From positions 93,188,001 to 93,252,000 of the forward strand of contig NC_086108.1 in NCBI RefSeq assembly GCF_963921235.1: DNA of 64,000 bases. The letters are read 5' to 3'. A program made the position numbers and the translations under genes. Position 1 is the stretch's first letter, and each line of letters opens with the position of its first letter. Shown here one piece after another: positions 6,250-58,725 of this stretch. Origin of the DNA: Mobula hypostoma. Its lineage: Eukaryota. A model generated the notes under the pieces. That model had not been told where the DNA came from and searched no databases. It worked only from the letters and a program-made list of their open reading frames with translations.

Positions 6250-6830
6250 TTGCTTGTCATGTCACTCCTGCAAGACAATATGGGGAGGGGAATCAAGCTG
6301 CAGGTTTCATGCTGTCCCCTCTCCTTCCAATCCTCCTGTGGTCCTCCCATTTTTGACCCCTTTCCCACATACCCCCACCTTCAACCATCTTTGCCCTCTT
6401 CCGCCTCCTGGTTCTAACACCCACAACCGTGTGCTCCTGCCTGCCACCCTCAGCAGCCATCTCCAATCGTCATACTTCCCTCCACCTTTCTTTCTCCATC
6501 TATTTTGTTCTCTCTTTCCTCGCTTTCTTTGCCTCCATCCATCAATCACCTGTTACTATCTCTCAAGTCTCCCCTGTTCGCTCCTCCACCTGGCACAAAC
6601 TGCCAGATACATACACCCCTCCTCAGTCCACCAATCACCTCGGACTCTTTTCTTACCACTCCTCTCTCCTCTCTGTGCTGGCCATGCTGCCTCTCCACTC
6701 TCAGTGCTGAAGCAGGGTTCTGACCCAAAATGTCGACAGTTTCTTTTTTCCCCATCGATGCTGCCCAACCCACCGAGTCCCCTCAATACTTTGCTGCTTC
6801 AGATTCCAGCAGCTCCAGTCTCTTGTACCT
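6250..6830 (+). mobile_element. Old Penelope-like element 3' fragment
   Basis: Pyrimidine-rich 3' region, degenerate hammerhead-like motif at about 6702-6740 and CCAGCA terminus, homologous to 26665-27298. Confidence 0.6.
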
Positions 6831-7951
6831 CATCCAGCCTCCTGTCTTTCTCTCTTCCACCCTCTGCTAGAATGAGCAAACTGAGCTGGAGAAGTATCAC
6901 TCAGGCTCCAAGTTAAAATTAAGTAATTGAAGTAATAATACTTAAACATGAATGCAATTTCCTGTTGTTCCAAGCTCGACCTGCTTTCAAACCAGAGATA
7001 TAAATGCAACATGGTCATTTTCCCCCAGTCCAGATTAAAAAGGTTTTATAGTTCAGCACCAGTCAACCATTAGCATTGAATGACTTCTGAAAATAATCAC
7101 ATTTGTTTACTTCAAGATACTTGCCAATTCTTGTTAAGTCACTATGATTTTCTTTCTTGATTATATTTTGCTGACTAAAATCAAACTTCTCTCCTCTAAA
7201 GGTTTCAATAATTTTCAATAAACTTTATAAATTTCAGTTAACACTGTTTTCTTGCAAATTGCCTGGCATTGGCAATAACGAACAGTTGAATATTTGTTAA
7301 TCAAGTAAATAGGTTGAGCAGGAGTAAGAAAATAATCGCCGGATTTAATAAAAAAGGGTGGCATCAATACATGGGAAAAGCATAGAGAATATTTGATTTT
7401 AATTTTGTTTTCCATGATTGTCTCTCATTTCCTGGCTCATTACACGGTTCCCCGGTTGACATGTTGTTGGACGTTCCCTCGACGTTCCCCCTGGTCTGTT
7501 CTAGAAAACCAGGCCAAAAGGATTAGTGACTTAACAAAAATCCTGAATGAGTTTCAACCTGCCCTCAAGCAGTTCTTATTGGAGCCACTACAGTGTGATA
7601 ACTCCCATCTGTCTAGTATATAGCCTTCACTAAAGTCTTGTAGGAGTTAAAAGAAGACATCTGGTCCAGTTAATGGAAATAGCATCTCATGCCTATTGCA
7701 TGGATCTAAGCTTCATATGCCATGCTCTCATTCATCCCACATAAGCTCGCCAGATGTGTGTCAGACACCCAAATCACTGAGAAAGTTCTTGTCTTGTGTC
7801 TGCTTACCGGAGGGAGAAACACACGGTTCCTCCAAAAGTCTCTGTGATATGAAGGGAGTACAAAATGACTTCCCATTCATTATTAATTGTCATAGTCTTA
7901 AAACTGGATTGTACTACTCTACTACCTAAACTTGAAAGTAATATTATATGT

Positions 7952-8012
7952 GTTCACCAGCAACTTTGATGTATGTTGCTTGAATTTCCAGCATCTGCAG
8001 AATTCCTGTTGT
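7952..8012 (+). mobile_element. Penelope-like element extreme 3' terminus
   Basis: TTCACCAGCAACTTTGATGTATGTTGCTTGAATTTCCAGCATCTGCAGAATTCC matches 46728-46781. Confidence 0.8.
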
Positions 8013-8544
8013 TTATATATTCTTTAATCATTTTAATAGTATTCAATTTACTTTTGGCTAAAACGTTAATCTCTTCCTATACAAATTGTTTAATTCAAGA
8101 AAGGACAATTTCCAAGATTTAGTGGCCATGTTTATTTCAGTTTATGTTACTCATGCAGAAAGCAATGGCAGTATTTCTGTACTAGAAACTAAATGGTGCA
8201 CTATTTTCCCTCCAATAAACACAAAGCGAATAGACATATCATAAATATTTCCAACCATGTGTTGTTGATGCTTCAGAATGTGGCCTGAACCTTTGTGGAG
8301 CTCTTTGACACGGCCAGGGAGTTAGAGAGGCATGTTCATTCTCCTATGCTCCAGGGAATAAAATTGTGACCTATTCAACCTATTCCTCATCCTTGTAACT
8401 TTTCTCTGAACCCCCTCAGTCTTTACATCTGTCCTGTGGGTAGATGACCATAATGTTCAATGGAACCTCCACAATCATGTCTGAAAACATCATTACGCGA
8501 GTTCAACGTGTACACAATGGAACGCAACATGTCAGGCACCATTC

Positions 8545-8920
8545 ACGGAGGTGAATAAAGTTGATGTTTTGGGCCGAGTCCCTTCATCAGGACCGGAAAG
8601 AAAGCGGGCAGAAGCCAAAATGGGAAGGCGGGGGGAGGGAAAGGAGTACAAGCTGATAGGTGAGAGCAGATGTTGGGGTGGGGGGAACAGGGTTACGTGG
8701 CTGGGGAGGGGGTGATGAGGTAAGAAGCTGGGAGGGGACAGGTGGAAGAGGTAAAGGGGTGAAGAAGGAATTTAGCAAGAGGACAGTGGACTATGAAAGA
8801 AAGGGAATGAGGAAAAGCACCTGAGGAGGTGATGAGCAGATGAGAAAAAGGGGGGAAAGGGTAGCCATAATAAGGGGGGAAAGGGGCGAATAGTAAAAGA
8901 GAGAAGGAGGCTGGGAGAAA
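8545..8920 (-). mobile_element. Penelope-like element 3' fragment
   Basis: Purine-rich on the + strand; minus strand has GTCCTGATGAAGGGACTCGGCCC. Confidence 0.7.
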
Positions 8921-9189
8921 GCACAATAAATAGCTCCGTACTATTTTTGTCCAGTGTAAACTCCTGGCAGATCAATCTCTCTCTCCCATTGAGAACAATA
9001 ATCCCCATTTATGAAGCACTTGTACACACCATCTTTAATTACCCACAAAGATAACTTAAGACTACTTGAATTAGTATATGATGTACCCCATAATGTAGTT
9101 ACAATCATATTACAAAATAAACATTAAATACAGTACTGTATACATACAAATACATATTTACACATACCCATTACTAAAGAAATGGAATA

Positions 9190-15203: not shown

Positions 15204-15808
15204 AAAATCACAAAATATTCTGCAGATGCTGGAGTCAAAGCAACACTCACAACACACTGGAGGAACTCAGCAGGTTGGGCAGCATCCATGGAAATGATCA
15301 GTCAACGTTTCGGGCCGGAACCCTTCATCTGTCCTGATGGGAGGAGCAACACCTTATATTCCATCTGAGTAGCCTCCAACCTGATGGCACGAACATTGAT
15401 TTCATGAACGTCCGGTAATACCACCCCCACCCCCCCGCACCTTTAACTATTCCTCATTCCTGGTTCCCTCTCTTACCTTATCTCCTTCCCTGCCCATCAA
15501 TCACCTCCCATTGGTGCTCCTTCCCCTTTTCTTTCTTCCATGGTATTCTGTCCTTTCCTATCAGATTCGCCCTTCTCCAGTCCTGTATCTCTTTCACCAA
15601 ACAACCTCCCAGCTCTTTACTTCAGACCCTCCACCTTTTTACTTATCACCTCGTGTTTTATCCTACCCTCCCCCCACTTTCTAACTCTGACTCCTCATCT
15701 CGTTTCTCCAGTCCTGATGAAGGGTCTCAGCCCAAAACATCAACTATTCTCTTTTGCTGCCTGGCCTGCTAAGTTCCTCCAGCATTTTGTGTGTGTTGCT
15801 TTGATTCC
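15204..15808. mobile_element. Two Penelope-like 3' fragments in opposite orientation (15204-15330 minus; 15339-15808 plus)
   Basis: Minus-strand terminus plus hammerhead region, followed by EEQHLIFHLSSLQPDG GIY-YIG C-terminus and 3' repeat on plus. Confidence 0.8.
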
Positions 15809-17647: not shown

Positions 17648-18540
17648 ACTCACAACACGCTGGAGGAACTCAGCAGGTCAGGCAGCATCCGTGGAAAAGA
17701 TTGGTCGATGTTTCGGGCCGGAACCCTTCGTCAGGACTGTAGAGGGAAGGGGCAGAGGCCCTATAAAGAAGGTGGGGGGAGGGTGGGAAGGAGAAGGCTG
17801 GTAGGTTCCAGGTGAAAAACCAGTAAGGGGAAAGATAAAGGGGTGGGGGAGGGGAGACAGGGAGGGGATAGGCAGGAAAGGTGAAGAAGGAATAGGGGAA
17901 AACACAATGGGTAGTAGAAGCAGGTGGATCCATGAGGGAGGTGGTAGGCAGCTGGGGGATGGGGCAGAGTGACATAGAGGAAGGGAGGGGGAGGGAATTA
18001 CCGGAAGTTGGAGAATTCTATGTTCATACCAAGGGGCTGGAGACTACCTAGACGGTATATGAGGTGTTGCTCCTCCAACCTGAGTTTAGCCTCATCATGG
18101 CAGTAGAGGAGGCCATGTATGGACATATCTGAATGGGAGTGGGAAGCAGAGTTGAAGTGGGTGGCTACTGGGAGATCCTGTCTGTTTTGGCGGACGGAGC
18201 GGAGGTGCTCGACGAAGCGGGCCCCCAATCTGCGTCGGGTTTCACCGATGTAGAGGAGGCCGCACCGGGAGCACCGGATGCAATAGATGACCCCAGCAGA
18301 CTCACAAGTGAAGTGTTGCCTCACTTGGAAGGACTGTTTGGGGCCCTGAATGGTGGCAAGAGAGGAGGTGTAGGGACAAGTGTAGCACTTGCGCTTAGAG
18401 GGATAAGTGCCAGGTGGGAGATCCATGGGGAGGGACGTGTGGACCAGGGAGTTGCGGAGGGACTGATCCCTGTGGAAACGGAGAGGGTTGGAGAGGGAAA
18501 GATATGCTTAGTGGTGGGGTCCTGTTGAAGATGGCGGAAG
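17648..18540 (-). mobile_element. Penelope-like element, 5'-truncated (GIY-YIG domain plus 3' repeat)
   Basis: ORF 17998-18426 with VIYCIRCSRCGLLYIGET..GMNIEFSNFR; closely related to 51940-52785. Confidence 0.92.
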
Positions 18541-23189: not shown

Positions 23190-23692
23190 AGCAACACATA
23201 TTCCATCTGGATAATCTCCCACCTGTTGGCATGAAGACCAATTTTTTTAACTTCCAGTAATTTATCAAACCCCACTGCCTTCTCTCTTTTTCCATTCTCT
23301 ATTCTGGTTCCCCTCTCTGCTCTTCTCATCTGCCTATCTCATCATTTTGGTGCCCCTTCTCTTTCACTGTCTTCCACGATCCACTCTCTTCTATCAGATT
23401 CCTCCTTCTTCAGCCTTCACCTCTTTCACCTATCACCTCCCAGCTTGCTTCTTCATCCCCCTCTCCCACCCACCTACCTTCCCCTCATCTGATCTCACCT
23501 GTTACCTGCCTGCACTCCCCCTCCCCCCACCTTCCTATGCTGGCTTCTGCCCCTTTCTTTTCCTGTCCTGATGAAGAGTCTTAGTTGGAAATATCAACTG
23601 TTTATTCCCCTCTGTAGATGCCTCCTGACTTGCTGAGTTTCTCCAATATATTTTGTACGTTGCTAAGATTTCCAGCATCTGCAGTATCTCTT
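23190..23692 (+). mobile_element. Old Penelope-like element 3' fragment
   Basis: Decayed GIY-YIG end, pyrimidine tract, GTCCTGATGAAGAG, TTCCAGCATCTGCAG terminus. Confidence 0.75.
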
Positions 23693-25884: not shown

Positions 25885-26662
25885 ACTGTTAAGGGGAGAG
25901 CTTTGCCTATGATGGACTGGGCCTTATCCACTAATTCTGTAGGATTTTCCATTCAGGGGCATTGGTGTTTCCATAGCAGGCTGTGATGCAGCCAGTCAAT
26001 ATACTCTCCACCGCACATCTATAGAAGTTTGTCCAAAGTTTTAAATGTCATGCCAAATCTTCTAAGGAAGTAGAGACACTGTCATGCTTTCTTTGTAATT
26101 GCACTTACATGCTGGGCCCAGGACGGGTCCTCTGAAATAATAACACTGAGGCATTTAAAGTTGCTGACCGTCTCCACCTCTGATTCCCTGATGAGGACTG
26201 GCTCATGGACCTCTGGTTTCCACCTCCTGAAGTCAATAATCAGCTCCTCAGTCTTGGTAACATTGAGTAAGAGGTCGTCGCTATGGCACCACTCAAATGG
26301 ATTTTCAGTCTCCCTCTTATGTGCTGATTCTTCACCACCTTCGATTCAGTGTATGGCAGCGGTATCATCAGCAAACTTGAATATGGCACTGCAGCTATGC
26401 TTCATCAGTCATAAGTGTAAAATAAAATAATGATTAGAGCAGGGGGCTAAGCGCACAGCCTTGAGGTGCACCTGTGCTGATGGAGATTGTGAAGGAGATA
26501 TTGTTGCCAATCTGAATTGCAAGTGTGAAAATTAAGGATCCAATTGCACAATGAGGTATTGAGGCTAAGGCCTTGAAGATTACTGATTAGTTTTGAGGGA
26601 ACGATGGTATTAAATGCTAAGTTGTTGTCGATAAAGAGCATCCTGATGTATGCATTCTTTGT
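25885..26662 (-). mobile_element. Rex1/Babar-like RT fragment
   Basis: [50 protein letters not shown]. Confidence 0.8.
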
Positions 26663-26664
26663 TT

Positions 26665-27298
26665 GCATCGACGCAGACTGGGAGATCGTTTCGCTGAACA
26701 CCTACGCTCTGTCCGCCAGAGAAAGCAGGATCTCCCAGTGGCCACAAATTTTAATTCCACATCCCATTCCCATTCTGATATGTCTATCCACAGCCTCCTC
26801 TACTGTCAAGATGAAGCCACACTCAGGTTGGAGGAACAACTCCTTATATTCCATCTGGGTAGCCTCCAACCTGATGGCATGAGCATTGACTTCTCAAACT
26901 TCCGCTAATGCCCCACCTCCCCCTCGTACCCCATCTGTTATTTATTTATATACACACACATTCTTTTTCTCTTTCCTTTTTCTCCCTCTGTCCCTCTCAC
27001 TATACCCCTTGCCCATCCTCTGGGTTCCCCCCCCCCTTTTTTCTTTCTCCCTAGCCTTCTGTCACATGATCTTCGCGTATCCCTTTTGCCAAACAACTGT
27101 CCAGCTCTTGGCTCCATCCCTCCCCCTCCTGTCTTCTCCTATCATTTCGGATATCCCCCTCCCCTTCCCACTTTCAAATCTCTTACTAGCTCTTCTTTCA
27201 GTTAGTCCTGACGAAGGGTCTCGGCCCGAAACGTCGACTGTACCTCTTCCTAGAGATGCTGCCTGGCCTGCTGCGTTCACCAGCAACTTTGATGTGTG
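26665..27298 (+). mobile_element. Penelope-like element, 5'-truncated
   Basis: [40 protein letters not shown]; 3' repeat nearly identical to 46120-46750. Confidence 0.92.
27203..27240 (+). ncRNA. Minimal type I hammerhead ribozyme motif in the PLE 3' repeat
   Basis: TAGTC-CTGACGA-A-GGGT(CTCG)GCCC-GAAAC-GTC-GACTG: both catalytic boxes, stem I TAGTC/GACTG, stem II hairpin and GUC triplet; stem III has no loop. Confidence 0.75.
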
Positions 27299-27304
27299 TA
27301 AGTT

Positions 27305-30300
27305 GTGATAGTAGGTGATTTTATCTTTCTACATATTGACTGGGACCCCCATACTGTAAAAGAACTGGATGGTAACGAGTTTGTCAAACATGTTCAGGAA
27401 AGTTCCCTTAATCAGTACATAGAAGTCCCAACTAGAGAGAGTAGAATACCAGATCTTTCTCTTCGTGATTAAGACAGGGCAGGTGACAGAAGGTTGTACA
27501 GGAGAACATTTACTATCTAGTGACCATAAAGCAATTATTTTCAAGCTAATTATGGAAAAGTATAGAGCTTGTCCTCATGTTGAGATTCTAAATTGGAGAA
27601 AGGCCAATTTTGATGGTATCAAAAAGGATCTGGCAAATGTGGACTGGGACAGTTTGTTTTCCAGCAAAGGTATACTTGGTAAGTGGAAGGCATTCAGAAG
27701 TGAAATTTTGGGAGCCCAGAGTTTGTATGTTCCTGTCAGAATAAAAGGCGTCATAGCAGGTTTATGGAACCCTGGTTTTCAAGAGATTTTGAAGCTCTGG
27801 TTAAGAAAACGAAGAAGGTATATACCAGGTAAAGGCAGGTAGGAACAAATGAGGTACTTGATGAGTATAAGAAGTGCAAGAGAACACTTAAGAAGGAAAT
27901 CAGGAGTGTTAAAAGAAGGCATAAGGTTCTTCTAGCAGACAAGGTGAAGGGAAGTCCTTATATAATCTATAGATATATTAAAAGCAAAAGGATAGCATGG
28001 GACAAAATTGGTGCTCTGGAGGAGCAGGGTGGTCATTTATGCGTGGGAGATGGGGGAGATCTTAAATGGATTTTTGGCATCTGTATTTACTTAGGAGATG
28101 AACTTAGAGTCTGTAAAAATGAGGCAAAGCAGCAGCGAGATCATGGACCCAATACAGATTAGAGGAGGAGGCACTGATTGTCTTGAGACAAATTAAGGCA
28201 GATAAATCCTCAGAACCTGTAATGATGTTCCTCAGACCTTGTGAAAGACTAGTGCAGAAATTGCAAGGGCCCTAGCAGAGATATTTAAAACATCCTTAGC
28301 TATGGGTGAGGTGCTGGAGGATTGGAGGTTAGCTAATGTTGCTCCGTTGTTTAAGAAAGGCTCTGAAAATAAACCAGGGAATTATAGGCTGGTGAGCCTG
28401 ACATTAGCAGTGGGAAAGTTATTGGAAGGTACTCTATGGGATCAGATATATGGGTATTTGGATAGACAGGAAATAAACAATAGACAATAGGTGCAGGAGT
28501 AGGCCATTCGGCCCTTCGAGCCAGCATCGCCATTCACTGTGATCATGGCTGATCATCCACAATCAGTACCCTGTTCCTGCCTTCTCCCAATATCCCTTGA
28601 CTCCGCTATCTTTAAGAGCCCTATCTAACGCTTTCTTGAAAGAATCCAGAGAATTGGCCTCCACTGCCTTCTAAGGCAGAGCATTCCACAGATCCACAAC
28701 CCTCTGTGTGAAAAAGTTTTTCCTCAACTCCGTTCTAAATGGTCTACCCCTTATTCTTAAACTGTGGCCTCTGGTTCTGGACTCACCCAACATCGGGAAC
28801 ATGTTTCCTGCCTCTAGCGTGTCCAATCCCTTAATAATCTTATATTTTTAATTAGATCCCCTCTCATCCTTCTAAATTCCAGTGTATACAAGCCAAGTCG
28901 CTCCAATCTTTCAACATATGACATTCCTGCCATCCCTGGAATTAACCCAGTGAACCTACGCTGCACTCCCTCCATAGCAAGAATGTCCTTCCTCAAATTT
29001 GGAGACCAAAGCTGCACACAATACTCCAGGTGTGGTCTCACCAGGGCCTTGTACAACTGCAGAAGGACCTTTTTGCTCCTATACTCAACTCCTCTTGTTA
29101 TGAAGGCCAACATGCCATTAGCTTTCTTTACTGCCTGCTGTACCTGCATGCTTACTTTCAGTGACAGTTGAACAAGGACAGCTAGATCTCGTTGTACTTC
29201 CCCTTTTCCTAACTTGATTATGATTAGGGATAGTCAACATGGCTTTCTGCATGGTACTTGACGTAATAATTCTAGAGTTTTTCGAGGAAGTTCCCAAGAT
29301 AGGTCATGTCGAACTAATTCTATAGAATTTTTTGAGGAAGTTCCCAAGAAAGCTGATGAAGCCAAGGCAGTGAATGCTGTCTATGTGGACTTTAGCAAGT
29401 CCTTTGACAAGATCCGTATGGGAGGATGGTCAAGAAATTTCAGTCACTAAGCATTCCAGATGAGGTAGTAAATTGGATTACATATTGACTTTGTGGAAGA
29501 AGATAGAGAGTGGTAGTAGATGGTTGCCTCTCAGACTGGACACTTGTGGCTAATTGTGTGCTGTAGGGATCGGTGCTGGGTCTGTTGTTGTTTGTCATCT
29601 ATATCAACGATCTGGATGATAACATAGTAAACTGGATCAGCAAGTTATTGAATGGCACAAAGAGAGGGGGTGTAGTGGACAGCAAGGACGGCTATCAGAG
29701 TTTGCAGCAGAATCTGGACCAACTGGAAAAATGGGCTAAAAATGCCAGATGAAATTTAATGCAGATGTGTGTGAGGTATTGCACTTTAGGAGGATCAACC
29801 AGAGCAGGTCTTAAATGGTAAGTGGTAGGGCACTGAGGAGTGTGGTAGAAGAGAGGAATCTGGGAATATAGATCCATAATTCATTGAAAGTGGCATCACA
29901 GATAGGTAGGGTCATAAATAAAATTTTTGGCACATTGGCCTTCATTGAGTACAGGAGATGGGATGTTATGTTGAAATGGTATAAGATTTTAATAGGCCTA
30001 ATTTGGAGTATTGTATGCAGTTTTGGTCACCTACCTACAGGAAAGATGTAAATAAGATTGAAAGAGGGCAGAGAAAATTTATAAGGATGTTGCCGGGACT
30101 TGAGGACCCCAGTTATTGGGAAGGATCGAATAGGCTAGAACTTTATTCCCTCAAATGCAGAAGATTGAGGGGAGATTTGATAGAGATATACAAAATTATG
30201 AGAGTTTTAAATAGGGTGAATGCAGGTTGGCTTTTTTCCATTGAGGTTTGATGAGACGACAACTAGAGGTCATGGTTAAAGGTGAAAGGTGAAATGTTTA

Positions 30301-32516: not shown

Positions 32517-33394
32517 ATATAGCCGGTCTTGCGGAAGGGTTTTGGCCCGAACCATTGACTGTACCCTTTTCCTAGATGCTGTCTGACCTGCTGAGTTCCT
32601 CCAGCATTTTGTGTGTGTTGCCAGTATTATTTAGCTCCTGGCTAGAATTGCTGTGGTCTCAATCATCACCATTGTACTGCTATTTGGGATATCTGAGGCT
32701 TGCCAGGTATTTCAGTCAAACCGTATGCTCAGTTCAGGGAGGTAGGAATACACCCTTTTGCTGCTTGGCACAGATTTCAGCTCTAAGAACACCACACACC
32801 TCCTACAGAATGAGCTGAGTTCCGAACTCTACAGGAAATTCCAAATGCCAAAATCCTAGGGGGTAAGTATGAACTAAAATATCAGAAGATGATGAATCCG
32901 CCAGTAGATTACGTGGGACACGGCACAGTCACAGTAGTCCGATGAGGAATTCAAATGTACTTGAATGCGCTTGTAACTCAAATTCCCTGAAATGGGAATT
33001 GAGCTCATAGAGTCATAGAGAGATGGAGCATGGAAACAGAGCCTTCATGCATAGAGACCACTCCAATCTTCAAGCACTTAGTTATGGTTATCCTACCCTA
33101 ATCTCATTTTATTCTCTCCACATTGCTACCAACTCAGTTACACACTAAGGACAACTTATGGTGAGGGGGACTGACTACCCTGCATGTCGTTGGGATGTAG
33201 GAGGAAACAGGAGCCCTGGAGGAAGACCATATGGTCACAGGGAGAATATATGGTACAAACACCACACAGACTGCACTAAAGTTCAGGACTGATGCCATCA
33301 TTGAAACTGCAAGTTAGTGGCTCTATCAAACGCACCGCCGTGCCAACCAAAACATTTTTCCCAATTACTTCTTCCAACATATTTACTAGTTGAG

Positions 33395-33770
33395 TATATC
33401 CCATCACCACCTTCTGGTGCTCCTCCCCCTTCCCTTTCTTCCGTAGTCTTCTGTCCTCTTCTATCAGATCCCCTCTTCTCTAGCCCTTCATGTCTTTCAC
33501 CAATCAACTTCCCAGCTTTTTACTTCAGCCCCCCCCCAGTTTCACTTCTCACCTGTCACCTTGTACTTCTTCCTCCTCTCCCCCCAACTTCTTAATCTGA
33601 CTTCTCCCCTTCCTCTCCAGTCCTGATGAGGGGTCTCGGCCCAAAGCATTGATTGTTTATTCTTTTCCGTAGATGTTGCCTGACCATGCTTATGAGCTCC
33701 TCCAGCATTTTGTGTGTGTTGCTTTGGATTTCCAGATTTGGATCTGCAGATTTTCTCATGCGTATGTCTT
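33395..33770 (+). mobile_element. Penelope-like 3' fragment
   Basis: Pyrimidine tract, CAGTCCTGATGAGGGGTCTCGGCCC, ATCTGCAGA terminus. Confidence 0.75.
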
Positions 33771-35779: not shown

Positions 35780-38024
35780 TAGTGGTGTGCAAAAGTTTGG
35801 GCACCCCCTGTCAAAATTTGTTACTGTGAATAGTTAAGTAAGTAGAAGATGAACTGATCTCCAAAAGTCGTTAAGTTAAAGATGAAACATTCTTTTCAAC
35901 ATTTTAAGCAAGTTTAGTGTATTATTTTTGTTTTGTATAATTTTAGAGTGAAAAAAAGGAAAGGAGCACCATTCAAAAGTTTGGGCACCCCAAGAGATTT
36001 GAGCTCTCAGATAACTTTTACCAAGGTCTCAGATCTTAATTAGCTTGGTAGGGATATGGCTTGTTCACAGTCATTGTTAGGAAAGGCCAGGTGATGCAAA
36101 TTTCAAAGCTTTATAAGTACCCTGACTCCTCAAATCTTGTCCCAACAATCAGCAGCCATGGGCTCCTCTAAGCAACTGCCTAGCATTCTGAAAATTAAAA
36201 TAAATGATGCCCACAAAGCAGAAGGCAATAAGAAGATAGCAAAGTGTTTTCAGGTAGCCGTTTCCTCAGTTTTTTAGATTATGAAGACATGCAGTCCTCT
36301 TTTATTGTCATTTAGTAATGCATGCATTAAGAAATGATACAATATTTCCTCCGGTGTGATATCACAAAACACAGGACAGACCAAGACTAAAAAAACTAAC
36401 AAAACCACATAATTATAACATATAGTTACAACAGTGTAACAATACCATAACTTGATGAAGAAGTCCATGAGCACAGTAAAAGTTCGAAGTCTCTCAAATG
36501 TCCCACATCTCACGCAGACGGGAGAAGGAAGAACTCTCCCTGTCATGCTGACCATAGTCCGACTCTGAGCCATCTGAAAACTTCGAGCTCTGATCAGCTC
36601 TCCGACACCGAGTACTGAGCGCCATCTCTGTCCAAACGACTCGACCTTAATCTCGGTCGCCAACAGCAGGCAAAGCCGGGGATTTTGAGACCTACCCTCC
36701 GAAAGATTCCCGACCATGCAGTAACAACAGCAGCGAACAAGTGTTTCAGAAATTTCTCCAGATGTTCCTCTGTGCTTTCACGTCCATCTCCGTCAAATCA
36801 GAATTGTCCACGGCCCCTATTTAATGGGTACGATATCATTTTTCACCAGAGGGCTGCGCACGCGCGGTGCGCTGCTCTCTCTCTTCCCGCCGTTAAAGTT
36901 GGTATGTAATTAAGAAATGGCAGTTAACAGGAACAGTGGAGGTCAAGTTGAGGTCTGGAAGACCAAGAAAACTTTCCAAGACAACTGCTCATAGGATTGC
37001 CAGAAGGGCAAATCAAAACCCCCGTCTGACTGCAAAAGACCTTCGGGAAGATTTAGCAGACTCTGGAGTGGTGGTGCACTGTTCTACTGTGCAGCAACAC
37101 CTGCATAAATATGACCTTCATGGAAGAGTCATCAGAAGAAAACCTTTCCTGTGTCCTCAGCACAAAATTCAGCGTCAGAAGTTTGCAAAGGAACATCTAA
37201 ACAAGGCTGATGCATTGTGGAAACAAGTCCTGTGGACTGATTAAGTTAAAACAGAACTTTTTGGCTGCAACGAGCAAAGGTATGTTTGGAGAAAAAAGGG
37301 TGCAGAATTTCATGAAAAGAACACCTCTTCAATTGTTAAGCACGGGGGTGGATCGATTATGCTTTGGGCTTGTGTTGCAGCCAGTGGCACGGGGAACATT
37401 TCACTGGTAGAGGGAAGAATGAAATCAATTAAATACCAGCAAATTCTGGAAGCAAACATCACACCATCTGTAAAAAAGCTGAAGATGAAAAGAGGATGGC
37501 TTCTACAACAAGATAATGATCCTAAAAACACCTCAAAATCCACAATGGGCTACCTCAAGAGGCGCAAACTGAAGGTTTTGCCATGGCCCTCACAGTCCCC
37601 TGACCTAAACATCATCAAAAATCTGTAGATAGACCTCAAAAGAGCAGTGCATGCAAGACGGCCCAAGAATCTCACAGAGCTAGAAGCCTTTTGCAAGGAA
37701 GAATGGGCAAAAATCCCCCAAGCAAGAATTGAAGACTTTTAGATGGCTACAAAAAGCATTTACAAGCTGTGATACTTGCCAAAGGGGGTATTACTAAGTA
37801 CTGACCATGCAGGGTGCCCAAACTTTTGCTTCGGGCCCTTTTCCTTTTTTGTTATTTTGAAACTGTAAAAGACAGAAATAAAAAAGTAATCTTGCTTAAA
37901 ATATTAAAGAAATGTGTCATCTTTCACCTTTTGCCTTTTGGAAATCAGGTCATCTTTTACTCACTTAGCTATTCACAGTAACAGAAATTTTGACCAGAGG
38001 TGCCCAAACTTCAGCATGCCACTG
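35780..38024 (+). mobile_element. Tc1-family IR/DR transposon with defective transposase
   Basis: About 210-bp imperfect TIRs with inner and outer AAAAGTTTGGGCACCC repeats; transposase from ATG 36158 to TKY-stop 37804 with GRPRK, VLWTD, QQDNDPK and SPDLNII motifs; stops plus an insertion. Confidence 0.95.
36273..36900 (-). mobile_element. Unclassified non-coding retroposon inserted in the Tc1 transposase
   Basis: Splits the transposase frame; CpG-rich head and an AATAAA..ATAATCTAAAA tail on the minus strand. Confidence 0.65.
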
Positions 38025-38094: not shown

Positions 38095-39099
38095 ATTAAA
38101 AATGTGACCTACTGAAAGATATATTGTTTAACAGTCCATGATTCATGAACTCATTCTCCATTTACTTATTTTTTATAATTTATAATTTTACGTTCTTGCA
38201 CTGTATTGTTACCACAAAACAACAAACTTCATGACATGTGTCAGTAGTAATAAGTCTGATTCTCATTCTGTACACTGCCGTTTTCCTTCAGATTGATGGG
38301 TGGACCTTTGTTTCTGCCAAAGAGTTATATAACGAATTCCCACTGGATAGGCTTGATCCTGGCAGATTTTCGTCCTGGAAAATAAAAATTGTTTGCTCAA
38401 ATAAAAACAGACTTGTGGACAGAATGAAGCTGTTTTATAGCCTTGGTGCACGTGTAAGTGACTCCATTTCACTGCCAGAAACAATGAGAGATGCAGTTGA
38501 ACCCGATGGGAGTTGTCCTGGCCAGTACTTATCCCTAAAAAAATATTATTTAAACAGATTGTGTGATTTGGCTGTACATAAATTGGCCGTACATTTCCAA
38601 AAATACAACAGTGACTGCATGTCGAATGCACATTGTTCTCTGAAAAGTGCTTTGGACTGTCCTCAGAACTATTGCATAATTACAAATATTTTTCTGTGAG
38701 CATATCAGCATTCAGGTGCTTAATTCATGTGTGACATTCCAGGCTGCTCCCTAAACAGGTACATTATCTCATAAGTAGATTAGTACGTTATCAATTGGAG
38801 GATGGCTGAATAATGCATAAACAGGTTAAACATTCATGTCCTAGTGAAATAAACTGCACGCAAGGCTCTTTCACACAGCCATTTTGATTTCCTTTGGCTT
38901 CAGGATCAGCAGGGAAAGGGTAATCATGCCAACCAATAAAGCATTTAGAACAATAAAGGGCAAAAAAAAACTTCAATGACAATGGGTGAAAAATAACACA
39001 GTTCAGATTCATGATATGCGAAACATTTCATTCTTAAAAATATTATACAAACTTTAGTTAAACAAGGACAAAGAAAGGGAAGTGTGATAAATAGATGGA

Positions 39100-42600: not shown

Positions 42601-44615
42601 TCCTAGATCTGTTAGCTCAATTTAGTAACTTCTCTGGTTACAAATTGAATCTTAGTAAGAGTGAATTATTCCCTTTAAGTAAGCATGTACCTATTTATGG
42701 ACGTTTACCATTTAAATTGGTTACTGATTCATTTATATATTTAGGGATAACAATTACGAAAAAGTATAAAGATTTATTTAAAGCTAATTTTTTACCTTTA
42801 ATTGATCAGATTAAACTTTTATTTACCAAATGGTCCCCAATATCTTTGTCTTTGATTGGTCGGATTAATGCTATTAAGATGATCATTTTGCCTAAATTTT
42901 TGTATATATTCCAATCAGTTCCAATTTTTATCCCAAAATCTTTTTTTGATAACGTAGATTCAAAGATTTCCTCTTATATTTGGCAGAATAAAAATCCTAG
43001 GTTAGGTAAAAGGTATCTACAGAAATCTAAAAAGGAGGGGGGGCTCGCCCTCCCGAATTTTAGATGCTATTATTGGGCAATTAATATTTGATATTTAAAA
43101 TTTTGGTTACAAGATTTGGACGCATCTTTAAACCCTCATTGGGTAAATCTTGAATCTAATTCATTACAAGGGTTCTCCTTGGGTTCAGTTTTAGGAGCTT
43201 TACTTCCTTTTACTTCTTTTAAATCATATAAACAAATGAATAACCCAATAGTTAAGCATACTTTACGTATATGGTTTCAATTCCGAAGATTTTTTGGGTT
43301 TAATCAATTTATTCTAGCAAGTCCTATTACATCAAATTTTCTTTTTCAACCTTCTACGATGGATCAAGCTTACTTTGATTGGAAAACCAAAGGTATAATA
43401 TCTTTTCACGATTTATTCTTGGATAACTGTTTTATGTCTTTTGATCAACTCTCTAATAAATATAACTTACCCAGATCTCACTTTTTAAGATATCTACAGA
43501 TTAGAAACTTTTTAATTACTGTCTCTCCTAATTTTCCACATCCATATCCAATGGACACTTTGGAAAAAATCTTAGATTTAAATCTCTCTCAGAAAAGTGT
43601 AGTAGCAATTATATATAATATAATTATGAATCTATGTCCTGATGCTTCTAATAAAATTAAAGCTGACTGGGAAAGAGAACTTGAGATTAATATACCGACT
43701 GAAAAATGGGAAAAAATTCTTCAGTTGGTGAATTCATCCTCTGTATGTGCTAAACATAGGTTGATACAGTTTAAAGTAGTGCACAGGGCTCATATATCCA
43801 AAGATAAACTATCTCGTTATTGCTCTTATAATAATCCAATATGTGACAGATGTCATTCCGAGATAGCTTCTTTAACCCACATGTTCTGGTCATGTCCCTT
43901 ATTGGAGAAATATTGGAAAGATATTTTCGATATTATTTCAACGGTCCTAAATATAGACTTACAACCTCATCCAATTACTGCCATCTTTGAACTACCAATG
44001 ATAGACTTAAATAATTTAACCTCTTCATCACGAAGGATGATTGCATTTCTTACTTTAATAGCTAGAAGGTCCATTTTGCTGAATTGGAAAGAGATCAACC
44101 CTCCTACTGTATTTCATTGGTTTTCACAAACTATGGTGTGTTTGAATTTGGAGAAAATTAGAAGTGCAGTTTATGACCCTTCCATTAAGTTTGAAAAAAC
44201 TTGGAGGCCATTCATTCAGCATTTTCATTTGATGTAATTTGATCATTTCCAAACTTGTTTTATCTCCCTGTACTGTTGTTGGAGGGGATTGGAGTCGTTG
44301 ACACTAAGGTTTTCTTCTTTTCCTTTTTTAAGTTGTTAGTTTTGCCCAAGTCTTTTAGGTTAGTTGACTAATTTTGTTTTTCTTTGGGGATGGGGTTTGT
44401 TTGTTTTGTTTTTTTTTCTTTTTCTTTTTTTTTCCAGTTTTTTTTTATTTTGTATTATCCGTGGTTAGTTCTACATGTTTGGGAGCTTTGTTAATTTCCA
44501 CTACTTGGTTTTGCAATTATTTTTTTAAGTGTAACATTACATCTCCTTCTATTTGTATTATGGCTATGTTCTGTTTCTGTATTTTGAAATTAATAAAAAG
44601 ATTGAAAAAGAAAGA
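39615..44615 (+). mobile_element. L1-clade LINE (inter-ORF region, ORF2 and 3' UTR; ORF1 missing)
   Basis: 11-bp TSD AAGAGATTTGA at 39604-39614 and 44616-44626; AATAAA plus (GAAA)n tail. Confidence 0.95.
40461..44237 (+). pseudogene. L1 ORF2 (APE, RT, zinc knuckle), full span but disrupted
   Basis: MAHTINFVSWNTNGLN; GGDFN; SRIDYF; SDHAP; KAPGPDG; YRPISLLN; DAKKAFD; YADD at 42546-42557; CDRC..HMFWSC; several frameshifts and stops. Confidence 0.92.
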
Positions 44616-47299
44616 AAGAGATTTGAAAGTGGGAGGGGGAGGGGGGAGATACAAAATGATAGGAGAAGACAGGAGGGGGAGGGATGGAGCCAAGAGCTGG
44701 ACAGGTGATTGGCAAAAGGGATATGAGAGGATCATGGGACAGGAGGCCTGGGGAGAAAGAAAAGGGGGAGGGGGGGAAAACCCAGAGGATGGGCAAGGGG
44801 TATAGTGAGAGGGACAGAGGGAGAAAAAGGAGAAAGAGAAAGAATGTGTGTATACAAATAAAAAGCGGATGGGGTACGAGGGGGAGGTGGGGCATTAGCA
44901 GAAGTTAGAGAAGTCAGTGTTCATGCCATCAGGTTGGAGGCTACTCAGACGGAATATAAGGTGTTGTTCCTCCAAACTGACTGTGGCTTCATCTTTACAG
45001 TAGAGGAGGCCGTGGATTGACATATCAGAATGGGAATGGGACGTGGAATTAAAATGTGTGGCCATTGGGAGATCCTGCTTTCTCTGGCGGACAGAGCGTA
45101 GGTGTTCAGCAAAACGATCTCCCAGTCTGCGTCGGGTCTCGCCAATATATAGAAGGCCACATCGGGAGCACCGGACGCAGTATATCACCCCAGTCGACTC
45201 ACAGGTGAAGTGTCACCTCACCTGGAAGGACTGTCTGGGGCCGTGAATGGTGGTAAGGGAGGAAGTGTAAGGGCATGTGTAGCAATTGTTCTGCTCACAA
45301 GGATAAGTGCCAGGAGGGAGATCAGTGGGGAGGGATGGGGGGGGACGAATGGACCAGGAGTCGCACAGGGAGTGATTCCTGCGGAAAGCGGGGTGGGGGG
45401 GGGAGGGAAAGATGTGCTTAGTGGTGGGATCCCATTGGAGGTGGCGGAAATTACGGAGAGTAATATGTTGGACCCGAAGGCTGGTGGGGTGGTAGGTGAG
45501 GACAAGGGGAACCCTATTCCTAGTGGGGTGGCGGGAGGATGGAGTGAGAGGAGATGTGCGTGAAATGGGGGAGATGCGTTTGAGAGCAGACTTGATGGTG
45601 GAGGAAGGGAAGCCCCTTTCTTTAAAAAAGGGAGGACATCTCCCTCGTCCTGGAATGAAAAGCCTCATCCTGAGAGCAGATGCGGCGGAGATGGAGAAAT
45701 TGCGAGAAGGGGATGGCATTTTTGCAAGAGACATTGAGAAGAGGAATAGTCCAGATAGCTGTGAGAGTCAGTAGGCTTATAGTAGACATCAGTAGATAAG
45801 CTGTCTCCAGAGACAGAGACAGAAAGATCTAGAAAGGGGAGGGAGGTGTCAGAAATGAACCAGGTAAACTTGAGGGCAGGGTGAAAGTTGGAGGCAAAGT
45901 TAATGAAGTCAACGAGCTCAGCATGCATGCAGGAAGCAGCGCCAATGCAGCGTATCCTTGTAAGCGGAACAAGTGTTACACATGCCCTTACACTTCCTCC
46001 CTTACCATCATTCACGGCCCCAGTCAGTTCTTCCAGGTGAGGCGACATTTCACCTGTGAGTCGGCTGGGGTGATATACTGCATCCGGTGCTCCTGATGTG
46101 GCCTTCTGTATATTGGCGAGACCTGACACAGACTGGGAGATCGTTTCGCTGAACGCCTATCTCTGTTAACCAGAGAAAGCAGGATCTCCCAGTGGCCGCA
46201 CATTTTAACTCCACATCCCATTCCCATTCTGATATGTCTATCCACGGCCTCCTCTACTGTAAAGATGAACCCACACTCAGTTTGGAGGAACAACACCTTA
46301 TATTCCGTCTGGGTAGCCTTCAACCTGATGGCATGAACACTGACCTCCCTACCTTCTGCTAATGCCCCACCTCCCCCTCGTACCCCATCCGCTTTTTATT
46401 TATATTCACACATTCTTTCTCTCTCTCTCCTTTTTCTCCCTCTGTCCCTCTCACTATACCCCTTGCCCATCCTCTGGGTTTGCCCCCCCTCCCCCTTTTC
46501 TTTCTCCCCGGGCCTCCTGTCCCATGATCCCCTCATATCCCTTTTGCCAATCAACTGTCCAGCTCTTGGCTCCATCTCTCCTCCTCCTGTCTTCTCCTAT
46601 CATTTTGTATCTCCCCCTCCCAGTTTCAAATCTCTTACTAGCTCTTCCTTCAGCTAGTCCTGACGAAGGGTCTCGGCCCAAAGCGTCGACTGTACCTCTT
46701 CCTAGAGATGCTGCCTGGCCTGCTGCATTCACCAGCAACTTTGATGTGTGTTGCTTGAATTTCCAGCATCTGCAGAATTCCTTATGTTAGCACTGAAATG
46801 TACTTCGGTTGTATCTATGGAGATGGAAAGTGAAAGATGAAAGGTCATTGATCTGGTACGTTAATTCCATTTCTTTCTGCACAGATTCTCTCTGACCAGC
46901 TGTGCAATCCAGAGTTTAATTTTTGATTTTCAGCAAATGCTTTTGTAGAAACTAGGATGCGGAAAAGAGTCCAGGTAAAATGCATGGAGTGTTTATCACA
47001 CTAAACCCTTTATATTAATGTTGTCCATTCTCACTTTGGGCCCAAATCCAGTTTTGTACAGAGGGAACCTTGTCAATGGTATAAGGTGAAGCACATACAG
47101 CAGGGTGTGACCCGGAGCTGATTAGATCTTTGTATCCTGCGGCAAGTGGCAACCAAGAACACAAAGCTAATAAACTGAAGTTAAACATTATTCAACCTCT
47201 TGTGATTGAGAATAGGAAAAAAGGGAAGGCTTTTTTTATTGTTTGTGGTACGGAAACAAATCAATTATCCAAAGAACAAAATGAGGGTGAGACAGGCTT

Positions 47300-48544: not shown

Positions 48545-49570
48545 AACACAAGCTATATGCTGGAGGAACTCAGCAGGTCAGGCAGCGTCTATGGAAAGGA
48601 ATCAACAGTCAATGTTCAGACCAAGACCCTTCTTCAGGACTGGAAAGGAAGGGATAAGAAGCCGGCATAAGGAGGTGGGGGAAGAGGAATACAAGCTAGA
48701 AGTTGATAGGTGTGTAGGGAGAGGGGGAGGATGAAGTGAGAAGCTGGATGGTGATAGGTGGAAAAGGTAAAGGGCTGGAGAAGAAGGTATCTGATAGGAG
48801 AGGAGAGTTGACCATGGAAGAAAGGGAAGGAGGAGGGGCACTGGGGAAGGAGATAATCAAATGAGGAGAAGAAAAGAAATAAGAAAGGAGACAGAGTGGG
48901 GAATAGAAGAAGAGGGAAGAGGGCAAGGGGAAAATTGCCAGAAGTTAGAGAAATTGATGTTAAACTGGAAGTTAGAACGCATTCAAGTACAAGATAAACT
49001 CTGTAAGTATTAAGCGCAAGAGATTCTGCAGATCCCGGAAATGCAGAACAATACATACAAACTGCGGCAGGTCAGGCAGCATCTGTGAAAATGAATAAGC
49101 AGTCGTCGCTTCAGGTCAAGATCTTTCTTCAGGACCGGAAAGGAAGGGGAAGGTTGCCAGAATAAAAAGGTGGGGGAGGGGAAGAAGGACTAGCCAGAAG
49201 GTGGTAGGTGAAGCCAGGTGAGTCGGAAAGGTAAGGGGCTGGAGAATCTGTTAGGGGAGGAGAGTGGACCATGGAAGAAAGGGAAGAAGGAAAAGCACCA
49301 GTGGGCGGTGATTGGCAGGTGAGGAGAAGAGCTAGGAGGCCAGAGTGTAGAATAGAAGAAGAGAGAGGTGGGAGGAACAAAAAAATTACTGGAAGGAGAA
49401 ATAGACGTTCATGCCATCAGGTTGGAGGCTACCTAGACAGAATACAAGTTGTTGCTCCTCCACTCTGAGAGTGGCCTCATTGTGGGAAAAGATGGACCAA
49501 CATGTCGGTAGAATTTAGAATGGTTGGCTACTGGGAAATTCTGCTTCTGGCAGATGGAGTGGAGACGCTC
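48545..49570 (-). mobile_element. Two old Penelope-like 3' fragments in tandem (48545-48960; 49015-49570)
   Basis: Each has the terminal region, a degenerate hammerhead region and the purine tract; the second has a GIY-YIG remnant. Confidence 0.75.
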
Positions 49571-50915: not shown

Positions 50916-51039
50916 CTGATTTTGACAAGCATCAGGAAGGAGGCAAAGTGGTGGAAATTTACAAGAGAAAGGAAAAGCATGCTGGGTGCACCTTCATTAG
51001 TGAGCAGGGGAATATGTTGGAAAATGCTTAAGGACAGCT

Positions 51040-52789
51040 AATCGTAAATACAAAATAATCTGCAGATGCTGGGATCAAAGCAACACTAACTTCCAGTTCC
51101 CCGGTCCCAACCGCTTCATTTTTACTATGGATGTCCACTCCTTATACACCTCCATTCCCCATCAAGAAGGCCTCAAAACCCTCCGCTACTTCCTGGATAA
51201 TAGACCTCACCAGTTCCCCACCACCACTACCCTCCTCCGGTTGACGGAACTGGTTCTCACACTTAATAACTTCTCTTTTGGCTCTTCCCACTTTCTTCAG
51301 AATAAGGGTGTAGCTATGGGAACTCGCATGGGACCCAGCTACTCCTGCCTCTTCGTTGGTTATGTGGAACAGTCTGTGCTCCAAACCTATTCTGGTACTG
51401 CTCCCCAACTTTTCCTTTGGTACATTGACGACTACATTGGTGCTGCTTCCTGCACCCATGCTGAGCTCGTCAATTTCATCCACTTTACTTCTAACTTCCA
51501 CCCAGCCCTCAAATTCACTTACTCTATCTCGGACACTTCTCTCCCCTTTCTCGATGTCTCGGTCTCCATCTCTGGAGACAGACTGTCCACTGACATCTTC
51601 TACAAGCCCACTGACTCTCATAACTACCTCAACTATACCTCTTCCCACCCCGCCACATGCAAAAATGCCATTCCCCATTCCCAGTTCCTCCGTCTCCGCC
51701 GCATCTGCTCCCAGGATAAGGCTTTCCATTCCAGGACGTCTCAAATGTCCTCTTTCTTTAAGGATCGTCGTTTCCTTTCTACCGTCATTAATGACGCCCT
51801 CACCCGCATCTCCTCCATTTCCCACACTTCAGCCCTCACCCCATCCTCCCGCAACCACAACAGGGACAGAGTTCCCCTTGTCCTCACCTACCACCCCACC
51901 AGCCTCCGGATCCGGCACATTATCCTCCGCAATTTCCGCCACCTTCAACAGGACCCCACCACTAAGCACATCTTTCCCTCTCCACCCCTCTCCGCTTTCC
52001 ACAGGGATCGGTCCCTCCACGACTCCCTTATCCGCACGTCCATCCCCACGGATCTCCCACCTGGCACTTATCCCTGTAAGCGTAAGTGCTACACCTGTCC
52101 CTACACCTCCTCTCTTGCCACCATTCAGGGCCCCAAACAGTCCTTCCAGGTGAGGCAACACTTTACTTGTGAGTCTGCTGGGGTCATCTATTGCATCTGG
52201 TGCTCCCGGTGCGGCCTCTTCTACATCGGTGAAACCCGATGCAGATTGGGGGTCCGCTTCATCGAGCACGTCCGCTCCGTCCGCCACAACAGACAGGATC
52301 TCCCGGTAGCCACCCACTTCAACTCTGCTTCCCATTCCCATTCAGATATGTCCATACATGGCCTCCTCTACTGCTATGCTGAGGCTAAACTCAGGTTGGA
52401 GGAGCAACCCCTCATACACCGTCTAGGTAGTCTCCAGCCCCTTGGTATGAACATAGAATTCTCCACCTTCCGGTAATTCCATCCCCCTCCCTTCCTCTAT
52501 CCCTATTTCACTTTACCCCCTCCCCTAGCTGCCTATCACCTCCCTCATGGTTCCACTTCCTTCTTCTACCCATTGTTTTCCTGCCTATGATGTCCCTGCT
52601 TCCCCTCCCCCACCCCTTTGTCTTTCAAATTACTGGTTTTTCAACTGAAACTACAAGCATTCTTCAAATGCTTCCCCCTCCTTATTTCTTCAGTCCTGAC
52701 AAAGGGTTCCGGCCCGAAACGTCGACTCATCATTTCCACTGATGCTGCCTGACCTGCCGAGTTCCTCCAGCGTGCTGTGAGCGTTGCTT
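51040..52789 (+). mobile_element. Penelope-like element with a short inverted 3' terminus at its 5' side
   Basis: 51040-51087 is the reverse complement of the PLE terminus; flanks TGCTTAAGGACAGCT (51025-51039) / TGCTTAAAGACAGCT (52785-52799). Confidence 0.92.
51127..52476 (+). CDS. Penelope-like RT plus GIY-YIG endonuclease, N-terminally truncated (449 aa open)
   Basis: MDVHSLYTSIP, GVAMGTRMGP, YIDD, LPFLDV, YKPTD, VIYCIWC..FYIGET, GMN. Confidence 0.9.
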   Translation: MDVHSLYTSIPHQEGLKTLRYFLDNRPHQFPTTTTLLRLTELVLTLNNFSFGSSHFLQNKGVAMGTRMGPSYSCLFVGYVEQSVLQTYSGTAPQLFLWYIDDYIGAASCTHAELVNFIHFTSNFHPALKFTYSISDTSLPFLDVSVSISGDRLSTDIFYKPTDSHNYLNYTSSHPATCKNAIPHSQFLRLRRICSQDKAFHSRTSQMSSFFKDRRFLSTVINDALTRISSISHTSALTPSSRNHNRDRVPLVLTYHPTSLRIRHIILRNFRHLQQDPTTKHIFPSPPLSAFHRDRSLHDSLIRTSIPTDLPPGTYPCKRKCYTCPYTSSLATIQGPKQSFQVRQHFTCESAGVIYCIWCSRCGLFYIGETRCRLGVRFIEHVRSVRHNRQDLPVATHFNSASHSHSDMSIHGLLYCYAEAKLRLEEQPLIHRLGSLQPLGMNIEFSTFR

Positions 52790-52829
52790 AAAGACAGCTT
52801 CTATCCCACTGTTATAAGACTCTTGAACC

Positions 52830-57944: not shown

Positions 57945-58077
57945 AACAGTAAATAAGAACTTTTAAAAAGTACAGTTTACAGGAATTGGAAATAAAATCA
58001 AGAAAATGTTGCACTCAGAAAATCAGGCAGCAACTGTGTAGAGAGAACAGTTAACATTTTGAGTTGAAGACCCTTGG

Positions 58078-58725
58078 CCCGGTCCTGACCCTCCAAGCAG
58101 ACCATTGCCTTTGTCAGAGCTGGGGAGCAGCCAATACCCGCCAAAAGAGCATCTGCAGACATTCTGACCTCTGCAAGGGACTGGCAGCTGCTGGTGGACC
58201 TCAAAGGGCAGCTGAAGTTCCCCTACCATATCGCAGCCACCACCCTGCGACCAGACATTGTCCTAGTGTCTGAGTCGACTAAGCAAGTGGTGCTGCTGGA
58301 GCTGACAGTCCCATGGGAAGATAGCTTGGAAGAGGCCTTTGAAAGGAAGCTCTCCAAGTACGCAGGACTGGTCAGCAACTGTCAGCAGGCTGGATGGAGA
58401 GCGAGGTGTCTCCCAGTGGAGGTTGGTTGTAGGGGATTCGTAGCCCGTTCTTTAGTTAGAGCCTTCAGCATTTTGGGCATCGAGGGAGAGAGGAAGAGGA
58501 GAGCCATCCGCTGTACCACCAATGCGGCAGAGAGGGCCTCAAGATGACTGTGGCTCAAAAGAGGAGATCCATGGAGTCATAAGTAGCTAGCCATCTGGAC
58601 ACAAGCTGGGGTCTGATCAGCCCTGGATGGGTCACCTGGAGGAGGCTGTATGATGTTGAAAGACCCGAAACACCCGATGATTCCAGGAACATCACTGAAG
58701 ATGTGTCCAGAAGCATCAATAGATG
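58078..58725 (+). mobile_element. Hero-like non-LTR retrotransposon 3' end (restriction-like endonuclease)
   Basis: IAFVRAGE, WQLLVDL..LKFP.HIAATTLRPDIVL.SESTKQVVLLELTVPWE..ERKLSKY..PVEVGCRGF. Confidence 0.85.

Follow-up and report, generated by a model that had tools for sequence, protein, structure and literature searches.

The locus raises the question of why one complete hammerhead ribozyme motif stands among many broken relatives in the 64-kb stretch of ray DNA analysed here (the window), and of whether that motif acts on host transcripts, serves the element that carries it or is a passenger. A sequence-only reading had placed an intact minimal hammerhead at 27203-27240, and our analysis confirms it as written, on the plus strand. 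Stem I, the CUGACGA box, the extra A, stem II and the run GAAAC-GUC without a stem III loop are each present:

27203..27240 (+): complete minimal type I hammerhead motif, with all 11 core bases, H17 and stems I and II intact and the stem III loop absent
27203..27207 (+): 5′ strand of stem I, forming 5 bp with 27236-27240; the outer pair is U-G
27208..27215 (+): core box C3-A9, CUGACGA (27208-27214), and the extra A (27215) between positions 9 and 10.1
27216..27227 (+): stem II hairpin of 4 bp (27216-27219 with 27224-27227), with G10.1-C11.1 at its base, an inner U-G pair and the loop CUCG
27228..27235 (+): G12-A13-A14-A15.1 (GAAA, 27228-27231), C15.2-G16.2-U16.1 and C17 (27235)
27231-27234 (+): palindrome ACGU, a candidate intermolecular helix III
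27236..27240 (+): 3′ strand of stem I

By standard hammerhead numbering, the cut is predicted between 27235 and 27236, that is, after C17. Dimer pairing had been proposed through a near-palindromic AACGUC; in place of that hexamer, the dimer helix is the exact palindrome ACGU listed above. The broader proposal, of a motif borne by a Penelope-like element (PLE), built so as to require a dimer and with its scissile bond after C27235, is supported, with self-cleavage as a prediction.

Minimal hammerhead ribozymes (min-HHRs) were described in the pseudo-LTRs of metazoan PLEs by Cervera and De la Pena in 2014 (PMC4209133), the available text of which also places them in fish Neptune, Poseidon and Xena elements, mostly as dispersed single copies, and reports that in vitro the monomer is inactive and dimers are weakly active. 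That PLEs bear minimal hammerheads able to cleave as dimers, as the earlier reading stated, is thus published. The focal motif has the core of this class, C3UGANGA9, G12AAA15.1 and U16.1-H17 (11 of 11 core bases plus C17), and its type I topology, in which a stem I of 3-5 bp (5 bp at 27203-27240) closes the motif. G10.1-C11.1 is present in stem II and an extra base follows A9; such a base between positions 9 and 10.1 is part of the published min-HHR consensus (Fig. S3 of PMC4209133). The helix III loop is absent and positions 15.1-16.1 are palindromic (ACGU). The location is that of a PLE terminal repeat, 295 nt behind the stop of an ORF remnant, and the same order of ORF then motif recurs in 51004-52800 and 17648-18539. 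The likeness to the class as described in the text of PMC4209133 therefore covers type I topology without helix III or loop 3, a palindromic 15.2-16.2, the extra base, G10.1-C11.1 and the length of stem I, and extends to a U-rich 5′ flank, a 3′ position in 5′-truncated PLEs, mostly single copies and back-to-back pairs on opposite strands. Among the individual motifs of that text, the one from Acropora Neptune has the same build as the focal motif, with a 4-bp stem II and a tetraloop, whereas the Schistosoma motifs have a stem II of 7-8 bp, longer than the focal one. The PLE hammerheads of Lunse, Weinberg and Breaker (2016), as related in PMC6765202, are likewise similar in their very short palindromic stem III, and they cleave, at low rates, in the dimer-dependent way predicted for the focal motif.

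The motif is rare by composition. A descriptor scan of both strands of the 64 kb returned two loose matches (C3 at 27208(+) and 17734(−)) and one strict match (stem I of at least 5 and stem II of at least 4), which is the focal copy; 200 block-wise 2-mer shuffles of the window gave means of 0.215 loose and 0.015 strict matches. Rfam gave no hammerhead match in the window, nor in 27120-27320 at E ≤ 10, probably because its models do not fit a form without stem III: the canonical type I hammerhead of Rfam is defined by a stable helix III, a tertiary contact between loops I and II and an Rfam score, and the focal motif departs from it both in lacking the helix III loop and in giving no hammerhead score at E ≤ 10.

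The motif is carried by a short PLE copy, which we compared with the longer members of its family in the window:

26669..27299 (+): 5′-truncated PLE copy with the motif, 631 nt, with loose ends at 26669 and 27299 in public contigs
26669..26908 (+): C-terminal remnant of the PLE ORF (end of the GIY-YIG region), with the stop at 26906-26908
26909..27202 (+): pyrimidine-rich 3′ region, specific to the subfamily
27241..27299 (+): conserved block 3′ of the motif; from the predicted cut the copy continues for 64 nt, without the further tail of ~35 nt seen in several other copies
51004..52802 (+): longest family member, with an RT to GIY-YIG ORF (51004-52476, 490 codons), a CxxxCxxC linker and then a hammerhead at 52691-52728 (G8>A)
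17648..18539 (−): family member that encodes a GIY-YIG domain; its motif at 17702-17739 is nearly intact (core 11/11, 16.2 G>A, stem I of 3 bp)
44613..46785 (both strands): pair of the focal subfamily, an inverted 5′-truncated copy (44613-45950, −) joined to a forward copy (45953-46785) with a motif at 46655-46692 (G12>A, A15.1>G)

The focal remnant is identical to the C-terminus of the 51004-52476 ORF at 59 of 79 residues (75%). As in EN+ PLEs, that ORF is a single frame with RT followed by GIY-YIG, and its relatives bear GIY-YIG; the RVT_1 match on it (E = 3.5e-6) falls under the curated cut-off, and the GIY-YIG match on 17998-18507 lies at the cut-off. Its best named relatives, among the 120 of 579 matches listed, are shark and ray proteins with 62-82% identity, the top matches coming from rays. 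The frame begins in non-PLE sequence because a minus-strand PLE tail fragment (51059-51098) abuts the 5′ end of the long PLE ORF. Other traits of EN+ PLEs are also present: 5′ truncation, an adjoining inverted copy (44613-46785 and 15217-15800) and an optional tail. Between RT and EN, the CX2-5CxxC linker of Neptune elements appears as CxxxCxxC in the 51004-52476 ORF and is conserved in the alignment; the available text of Craig et al. 2021 (PMC8557442) gives this linker as common to Neptune and Nematis. The family resembles the Neptune EN+ PLEs of that text in having RT then GIY-YIG, the linker, 5′ truncation, an adjoining inverted copy, an optional tail of 30-40 bp and a hammerhead near the 3′ end, the difference being that the focal copy itself is without RT and linker. 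We therefore regard the element as a putative Neptune-type PLE, an assignment based on the linker motif and on a match to the published Acropora Neptune motif rather than on a tree.

No second terminal repeat was seen at the focal copy, and so no tandem pseudo-LTR pair flanking a full ORF, as expected for a truncated copy. The copy is flanked by fragments of two other LINE-type repeats (the upstream one recognized by eye), and inspection by eye found no target-site duplication around it. Non-LTR retrozymes (bioRxiv 10.64898/2026.07.22.740005) are similar in that, according to the available text, they have type I hammerheads from PLE terminal repeats and occur in the one chondrichthyan genome sampled. 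They differ in forming non-coding tandem arrays of at least two units with a complete motif in each, whereas the focal copy is a single unit with ORF sequence; the nearest motifs on its strand, 3.6 and 5.3 kb off, are broken. Elsewhere in the window, 44613-46785 is a textbook PLE inversion, with a 1.3-kb inverted copy and a forward copy at the end of an L1/Tx1-like LINE (ORF pieces at 40635-44237), and its inverted copy ends ~16 nt short of the motif. A 55-nt PLE piece of the focal subfamily at 7953-8007 (+) contains nothing but the end of the downstream block and the tail.

Whether the motif has been selected was addressed mainly outside the window, in the best 80 of 516 confirmed distant PLE loci, which are not mutually independent and whose proteins are 32-60% identical in the best segment. 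Where the match reached the C-terminus with 500 nt behind it (37 informative loci among the 80), the same motif was found in sense 94-139 nt behind the ORF in 14. Over the 80 loci there were 22 sense and 4 antisense matches in total, and none in 30 shuffles. When matches were chosen by their core alone, stem I was paired in 44 of 60 cells against 25.2 after shuffling (0 of 5,000 shuffles), a count drawn from non-independent loci. We also aligned the focal motif with 13 hand-picked distant motifs, near-duplicates and three motifs of other stem II length having been dropped; both sides of stem I had changed in 32 cells, compared with 10.9 in shuffles, in a set that was chosen for pairing and is thus partly circular. 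At the base of stem II, G10.1-C11.1 is G-C in all 14 rows of this alignment. Among 31 distinct matches, CG occupies 15.2/16.2 in 20 and the extra A is present in 26. In two distant loci (L008 and L011) the motif matches that published for Acropora Neptune; the focal one conforms to the published consensus. Antisense hammerhead-like matches at two loci, L061 (−) and L080 (−), have stems unlike those of the PLE motif of the same locus, and the first admits a drawing in which helix III has a palindromic insert of 4 nt.

Within the window, column conservation among the copies is 0.82 in the motif, 0.55 upstream, 0.61 in the spacer and 0.78 in the downstream block. In the public contigs, among 24 of 3,853 loose-end rows, other copies cease aligning at 27204 (4 of 4 runs) and at 27238-27243 (3 runs), which are the edges of stem I; short copies starting there may be included in the pile at 27204. 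Pairing among 14 of the 15 window copies (58050(−) being omitted as too degenerate) shows no more covariation than shuffled sets do (percent paired, 267/500), as decay would predict. Conservation of the core boxes and covariation of the stems, on which the earlier claim turned, are both present across distant PLEs. We conclude that the structure is selected in the element lineage.

These data also bear on whether the motif could be a chance look-alike within a repeat. The isolated fold is no more stable than shuffles (z = −1.27), and the missing Rfam match and the lack of covariation among the window's own copies fit that explanation; against it stand the strict-descriptor expectation of 0.015 per window and the match to the published consensus. 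The fixed position and the covarying stems in distant PLEs refute it, and we consider it hardly conceivable.

The 13 relatives that the sequence-only reading had listed all exist, on the strands given, and we found one more at 58010-58088 (−). Besides the three members with longer element sequence described above, they are:

6703..6765 (+): degenerate relative
8520..8599 (−): degenerate relative, CUCG loop
15263..15329 (−): degenerate relative, UCCG loop, 5′-truncated within the first core box (begins at 15335) and back-to-back with the copy at 15340-15800
15710..15776 (+): degenerate relative
23554..23639 (+): degenerate relative with core 11/11 and broken helices, the nearest same-strand copy upstream of the focal one
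32526..32598 (+): degenerate relative, with its 5′ end at the stem I edge
33619..33690 (+): degenerate relative, CUCG loop
39476..39614 (−): short copy of the focal subfamily whose motif is damaged at A15.1 and U16.1
49060..49141 (−): degenerate relative that opens a pair on one strand
48566..48650 (−): degenerate relative that completes this pair, ~500 nt away
58010..58088 (−): most degenerate relative

Local alignment scores of the 14 relatives range from 51 to 152, compared with a shuffled maximum of 35, and the 15 motifs divide into 8 plus and 7 minus. The two reported types of stem II loop hold: UCCG occurs in 15299(−), 17702(−) and 52691(+), CUCG in the focal copy, 39548(−), 46655(+), 8560(−) and 33619(+), and the remainder are variants. 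Of all 15 copies, the focal one alone passes every test, each of the 14 relatives being broken somewhere; 17702(−) and 23563(+) keep 11/11 core bases with broken helices, and the others are without one to five core bases. The stretch at 48533-49480 (−) holds two PLE 3′ ends head to tail, with motifs ~500 nt apart in a dimer-type arrangement, both motifs broken.

Why, then, is this copy intact? The damage in the window copies looks neutral: 47 of 140 CpG cells have changed, 42 of them by C>T or G>A, and 54 of 377 non-CpG cells. With three young copies at 3-5.5% divergence, the probability of at least one intact 38-mer is 0.68-0.31, from a model that leaves out the extra mutability of CpG, which would lower it. 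The focal 3′ end is mildly better conserved than expected. Between 27166 and 27299 it differs from the window majority at 1 of 134 positions and between 26669 and 27165 at 33 of 497 (Fisher P = 0.004, or 0.03 without the motif; two of the compared copies stem from one insertion), and with a lower rate taken from the public contigs and the motif left out, P rises to ~0.2. No difference rows fall in 27190-27323 among 40 of 207 listed, in four runs. The copy at 39548(−) begins near the point at which the low-difference 3′ part of the focal copy begins (the equivalent of 27173).

This excess could be read as co-option of the insertion by the host, with the motif under purifying selection at this locus. 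Such a reading would fit the greater closeness of the focal 3′ 134 nt to the family majority than that of the upstream 497 nt, and, weakly, a contig matching the upstream flank 26536-26654 with 0 differences in a run guessed to be RNA, which may hold DNA. But the copy was picked for being intact, an outcome with a chance of 0.31-0.68, and once the motif is set aside and the lower rate applied, the 3′ excess loses significance. A mixture of subfamilies, or gene conversion within so numerous a family, would look no different, or the copy could be chimeric. With gene context and a partner motif both absent, we regard co-option as highly improbable; the focal copy is probably not special. Our preferred reading, to which we assign a probability of roughly 0.78, is that an intact motif lies in the 3′ end of a 5′-truncated copy of a Neptune-type PLE, that selection likely keeps the motif in source elements, and that the focal copy is likely inert, a passenger whose youth accounts for its intact motif.

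Folding predictions put a further obstacle in the way of cleavage. For the monomer, a core-blocked fold was predicted at −12.9 kcal/mol and the open fold at −8.9 kcal/mol; the former is a rod in which G5-G8 pair with C15.2-C17. Two strands are predicted to form an inactive duplex (−34.1) rather than a double hammerhead (−16.7), and stem I pair probabilities are at most 0.06 in the 121-nt context 27180-27300. Since nearest-neighbour energies omit the tertiary core, these results overstate how unfavourable the active dimer is. The core-blocked fold agrees with the Poseidon element PAc of the anole (Frangieh et al. 2024; PMC11167929), whose ribozyme, according to the available text, cut only with its own protein. 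Of 17 motifs, 9 are predicted to form the core-blocking helix G5-G8:15.2-17; since the helix involves invariant bases and shows no covariation, there are no grounds for calling it a selected switch.

All 15 copies extend 43-103 nt past the cut (the reference copy was scored against itself), and separate sweeps of the window with each half of the motif found no copy starting at G1.1 or stopping at C17. Since every copy continues through the cut site, the RNA templates had likely escaped cutting or been religated. PAc is similar in that its hammerhead lies upstream of internal reverse-transcription starts and uncleaved RNA is the template; its copies end at two points ~30-40 nt apart, and those here at 64 nt and ~76-99 nt behind the cut. 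It differs in belonging to the Poseidon clade, in having a motif that overlaps the ORF start and in its demonstrated protein-dependent activity (PMC11167929, from the available text).

Taken with the published work, these observations suggest how the motif would function in a source element. Lacking a loop in A15.1-C-G-U16.1, a single motif should be unable to close helix III. With a second motif, supplied by the tandem terminal repeats of the same transcript or by another element RNA, the two ACGU stretches would pair and the stem I strands would be exchanged; each core would then cut its partner after C17, as extrapolated from the available text of PMC4209133 and PMC11167929. Free RNA would sit in the inactive rod and hence be cut slowly, and the element's own RT-endonuclease protein is likely needed. 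With uncut (or religated) RNA as template, reverse transcription would likely begin 64-100 nt 3′ of the cut and so yield many 5′-truncated copies with a whole motif; the inserted copies would then decay, mainly through CpG deamination.

In this PLE lineage the fold might instead serve mainly to dimerize RNA, to bind protein or to make reverse transcription pause, with cleavage incidental. Inserted copies that span the cut site are compatible with this, as are 2 of the 15 copies (32524(+) and 58081(−)), which start at the outer edge of stem I. In the available texts, insertion of the anole element in vitro is unaffected by core mutants (PMC11167929) and Naiad PLEs amplify without canonical hammerheads (PMC8557442). 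Yet G8, G12 and the NUH triplet persist in PLEs that share only 32-60% protein identity with the query, as selection for chemistry predicts, and in the anole element core mutants abolish cleavage, which a C3G/G8C double mutant partly restores (PMC11167929). We judge this alternative unlikely.

The remaining possibility concerns the host. The sequence-only reading had suggested that dispersed copies might cleave a spanning transcript or each other. We found no support for this: the enzyme half is incomplete in every other plus-strand copy, the reading frames searched yielded no host gene, no host transcript was found and the folds are predicted to be inactive. In its general form, the idea is that scattered intact copies, whether pairing in trans or inside a single long pre-mRNA, cleave host transcripts often enough to be measured. 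The family is dense (15 motifs in 64 kb), and 163,738 contig records of one DNA run match the 1-kb stretch at 85% or more, a figure that includes flanking LINE fragments and is not a copy number. In principle, 46655(+) or 52691(+) might provide a substrate half for the focal enzyme half, and dimers of the published motifs cleave in vitro at a low rate (PMC4209133, available text). These nearest plausible substrate halves, however, lie 19.5 kb (46655(+)) and 25.5 kb (52691(+)) downstream. Within the window, only the focal copy has a whole enzyme half on the plus strand, so that no window neighbour could cut it; the only close same-strand pair (48607(−) and 49100(−)) is broken in both units. Nor is there strand bias among the motifs, no host exon was found among the reading frames searched, and prediction gives stem I almost no chance of forming in the 121-nt context. 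In the anole, the PLE ribozyme is protein-dependent and RNA-seq shows no ends at its cut site, as far as the text of PMC11167929 goes. This form of the idea seems to us quite unlikely.

The search for a host gene gave transposon domains and weak noise only, with Pfam run on 9 and 53 reading frames (of 62 and 201 listed). A decayed Tc1/mariner transposon with HTH_Tnp_Tc3_2 and DDE_3 matches lies at 36095-37628 (+). At 38292-38699 (+), an exon-like stop-free frame of 135 codons stands behind a pyrimidine tract and AG in repeat-poor DNA; no homologue of it was found, with one marginal match at E = 6.8e-4. The public runs are 24 sets of assembled contigs, none on record as RNA. They contain no site of many molecule starts or ends, and no listed piece bridges the insertion junctions, contigs of this type being uninformative on expression, cleavage or presence elsewhere. 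Summed depth in the putative RNA run rises 1.9-fold in the bin just 3′ of the cut bin (27248-27281), compared with 0.75-1.09-fold in three others; contig depth cannot show ends.

On a genomic scale, many intact ray hammerheads might meet in trans in nuclear RNA, be refolded out of the core-blocked state by PLE protein in tissues that make it (gonad) and cut host intronic and intergenic transcripts after GUC at thousands of sites. We consider this very unlikely. If true, it would amount to a genome-wide, protein-gated ribozyme network and offer the best natural system for the role of PLE hammerheads in vivo.

The motif class is already published, and what is added here is one more lineage. The Fig. 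S3 alignment and Table S1 of PMC4209133, taken as text, contain no cartilaginous fish, and we found no literature on a shark or ray PLE hammerhead in a search that covered few subscription journals; the species of Lunse et al. may include them. The density of 15 motifs per 64 kb (one intact), which applies to this window only, appears much higher than the figures for coelacanth and Xenopus, 4,000-9,000 per genome, in the text of PMC4209133. At this locus the motif is likely inert. The in vivo role of PLE hammerheads is still open in the available texts of PMC8557442 and PMC11167929, and here is a vertebrate with about one motif per 4 kb, in which adjacent intact and core-mutated copies are built-in controls for sequencing of cyclic-phosphate or 5′-OH ends. 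A positive result of such end-mapping would show dispersed retroelement ribozymes cutting host RNA, and a negative one would argue that the motif acts solely inside the element's own ribonucleoprotein.
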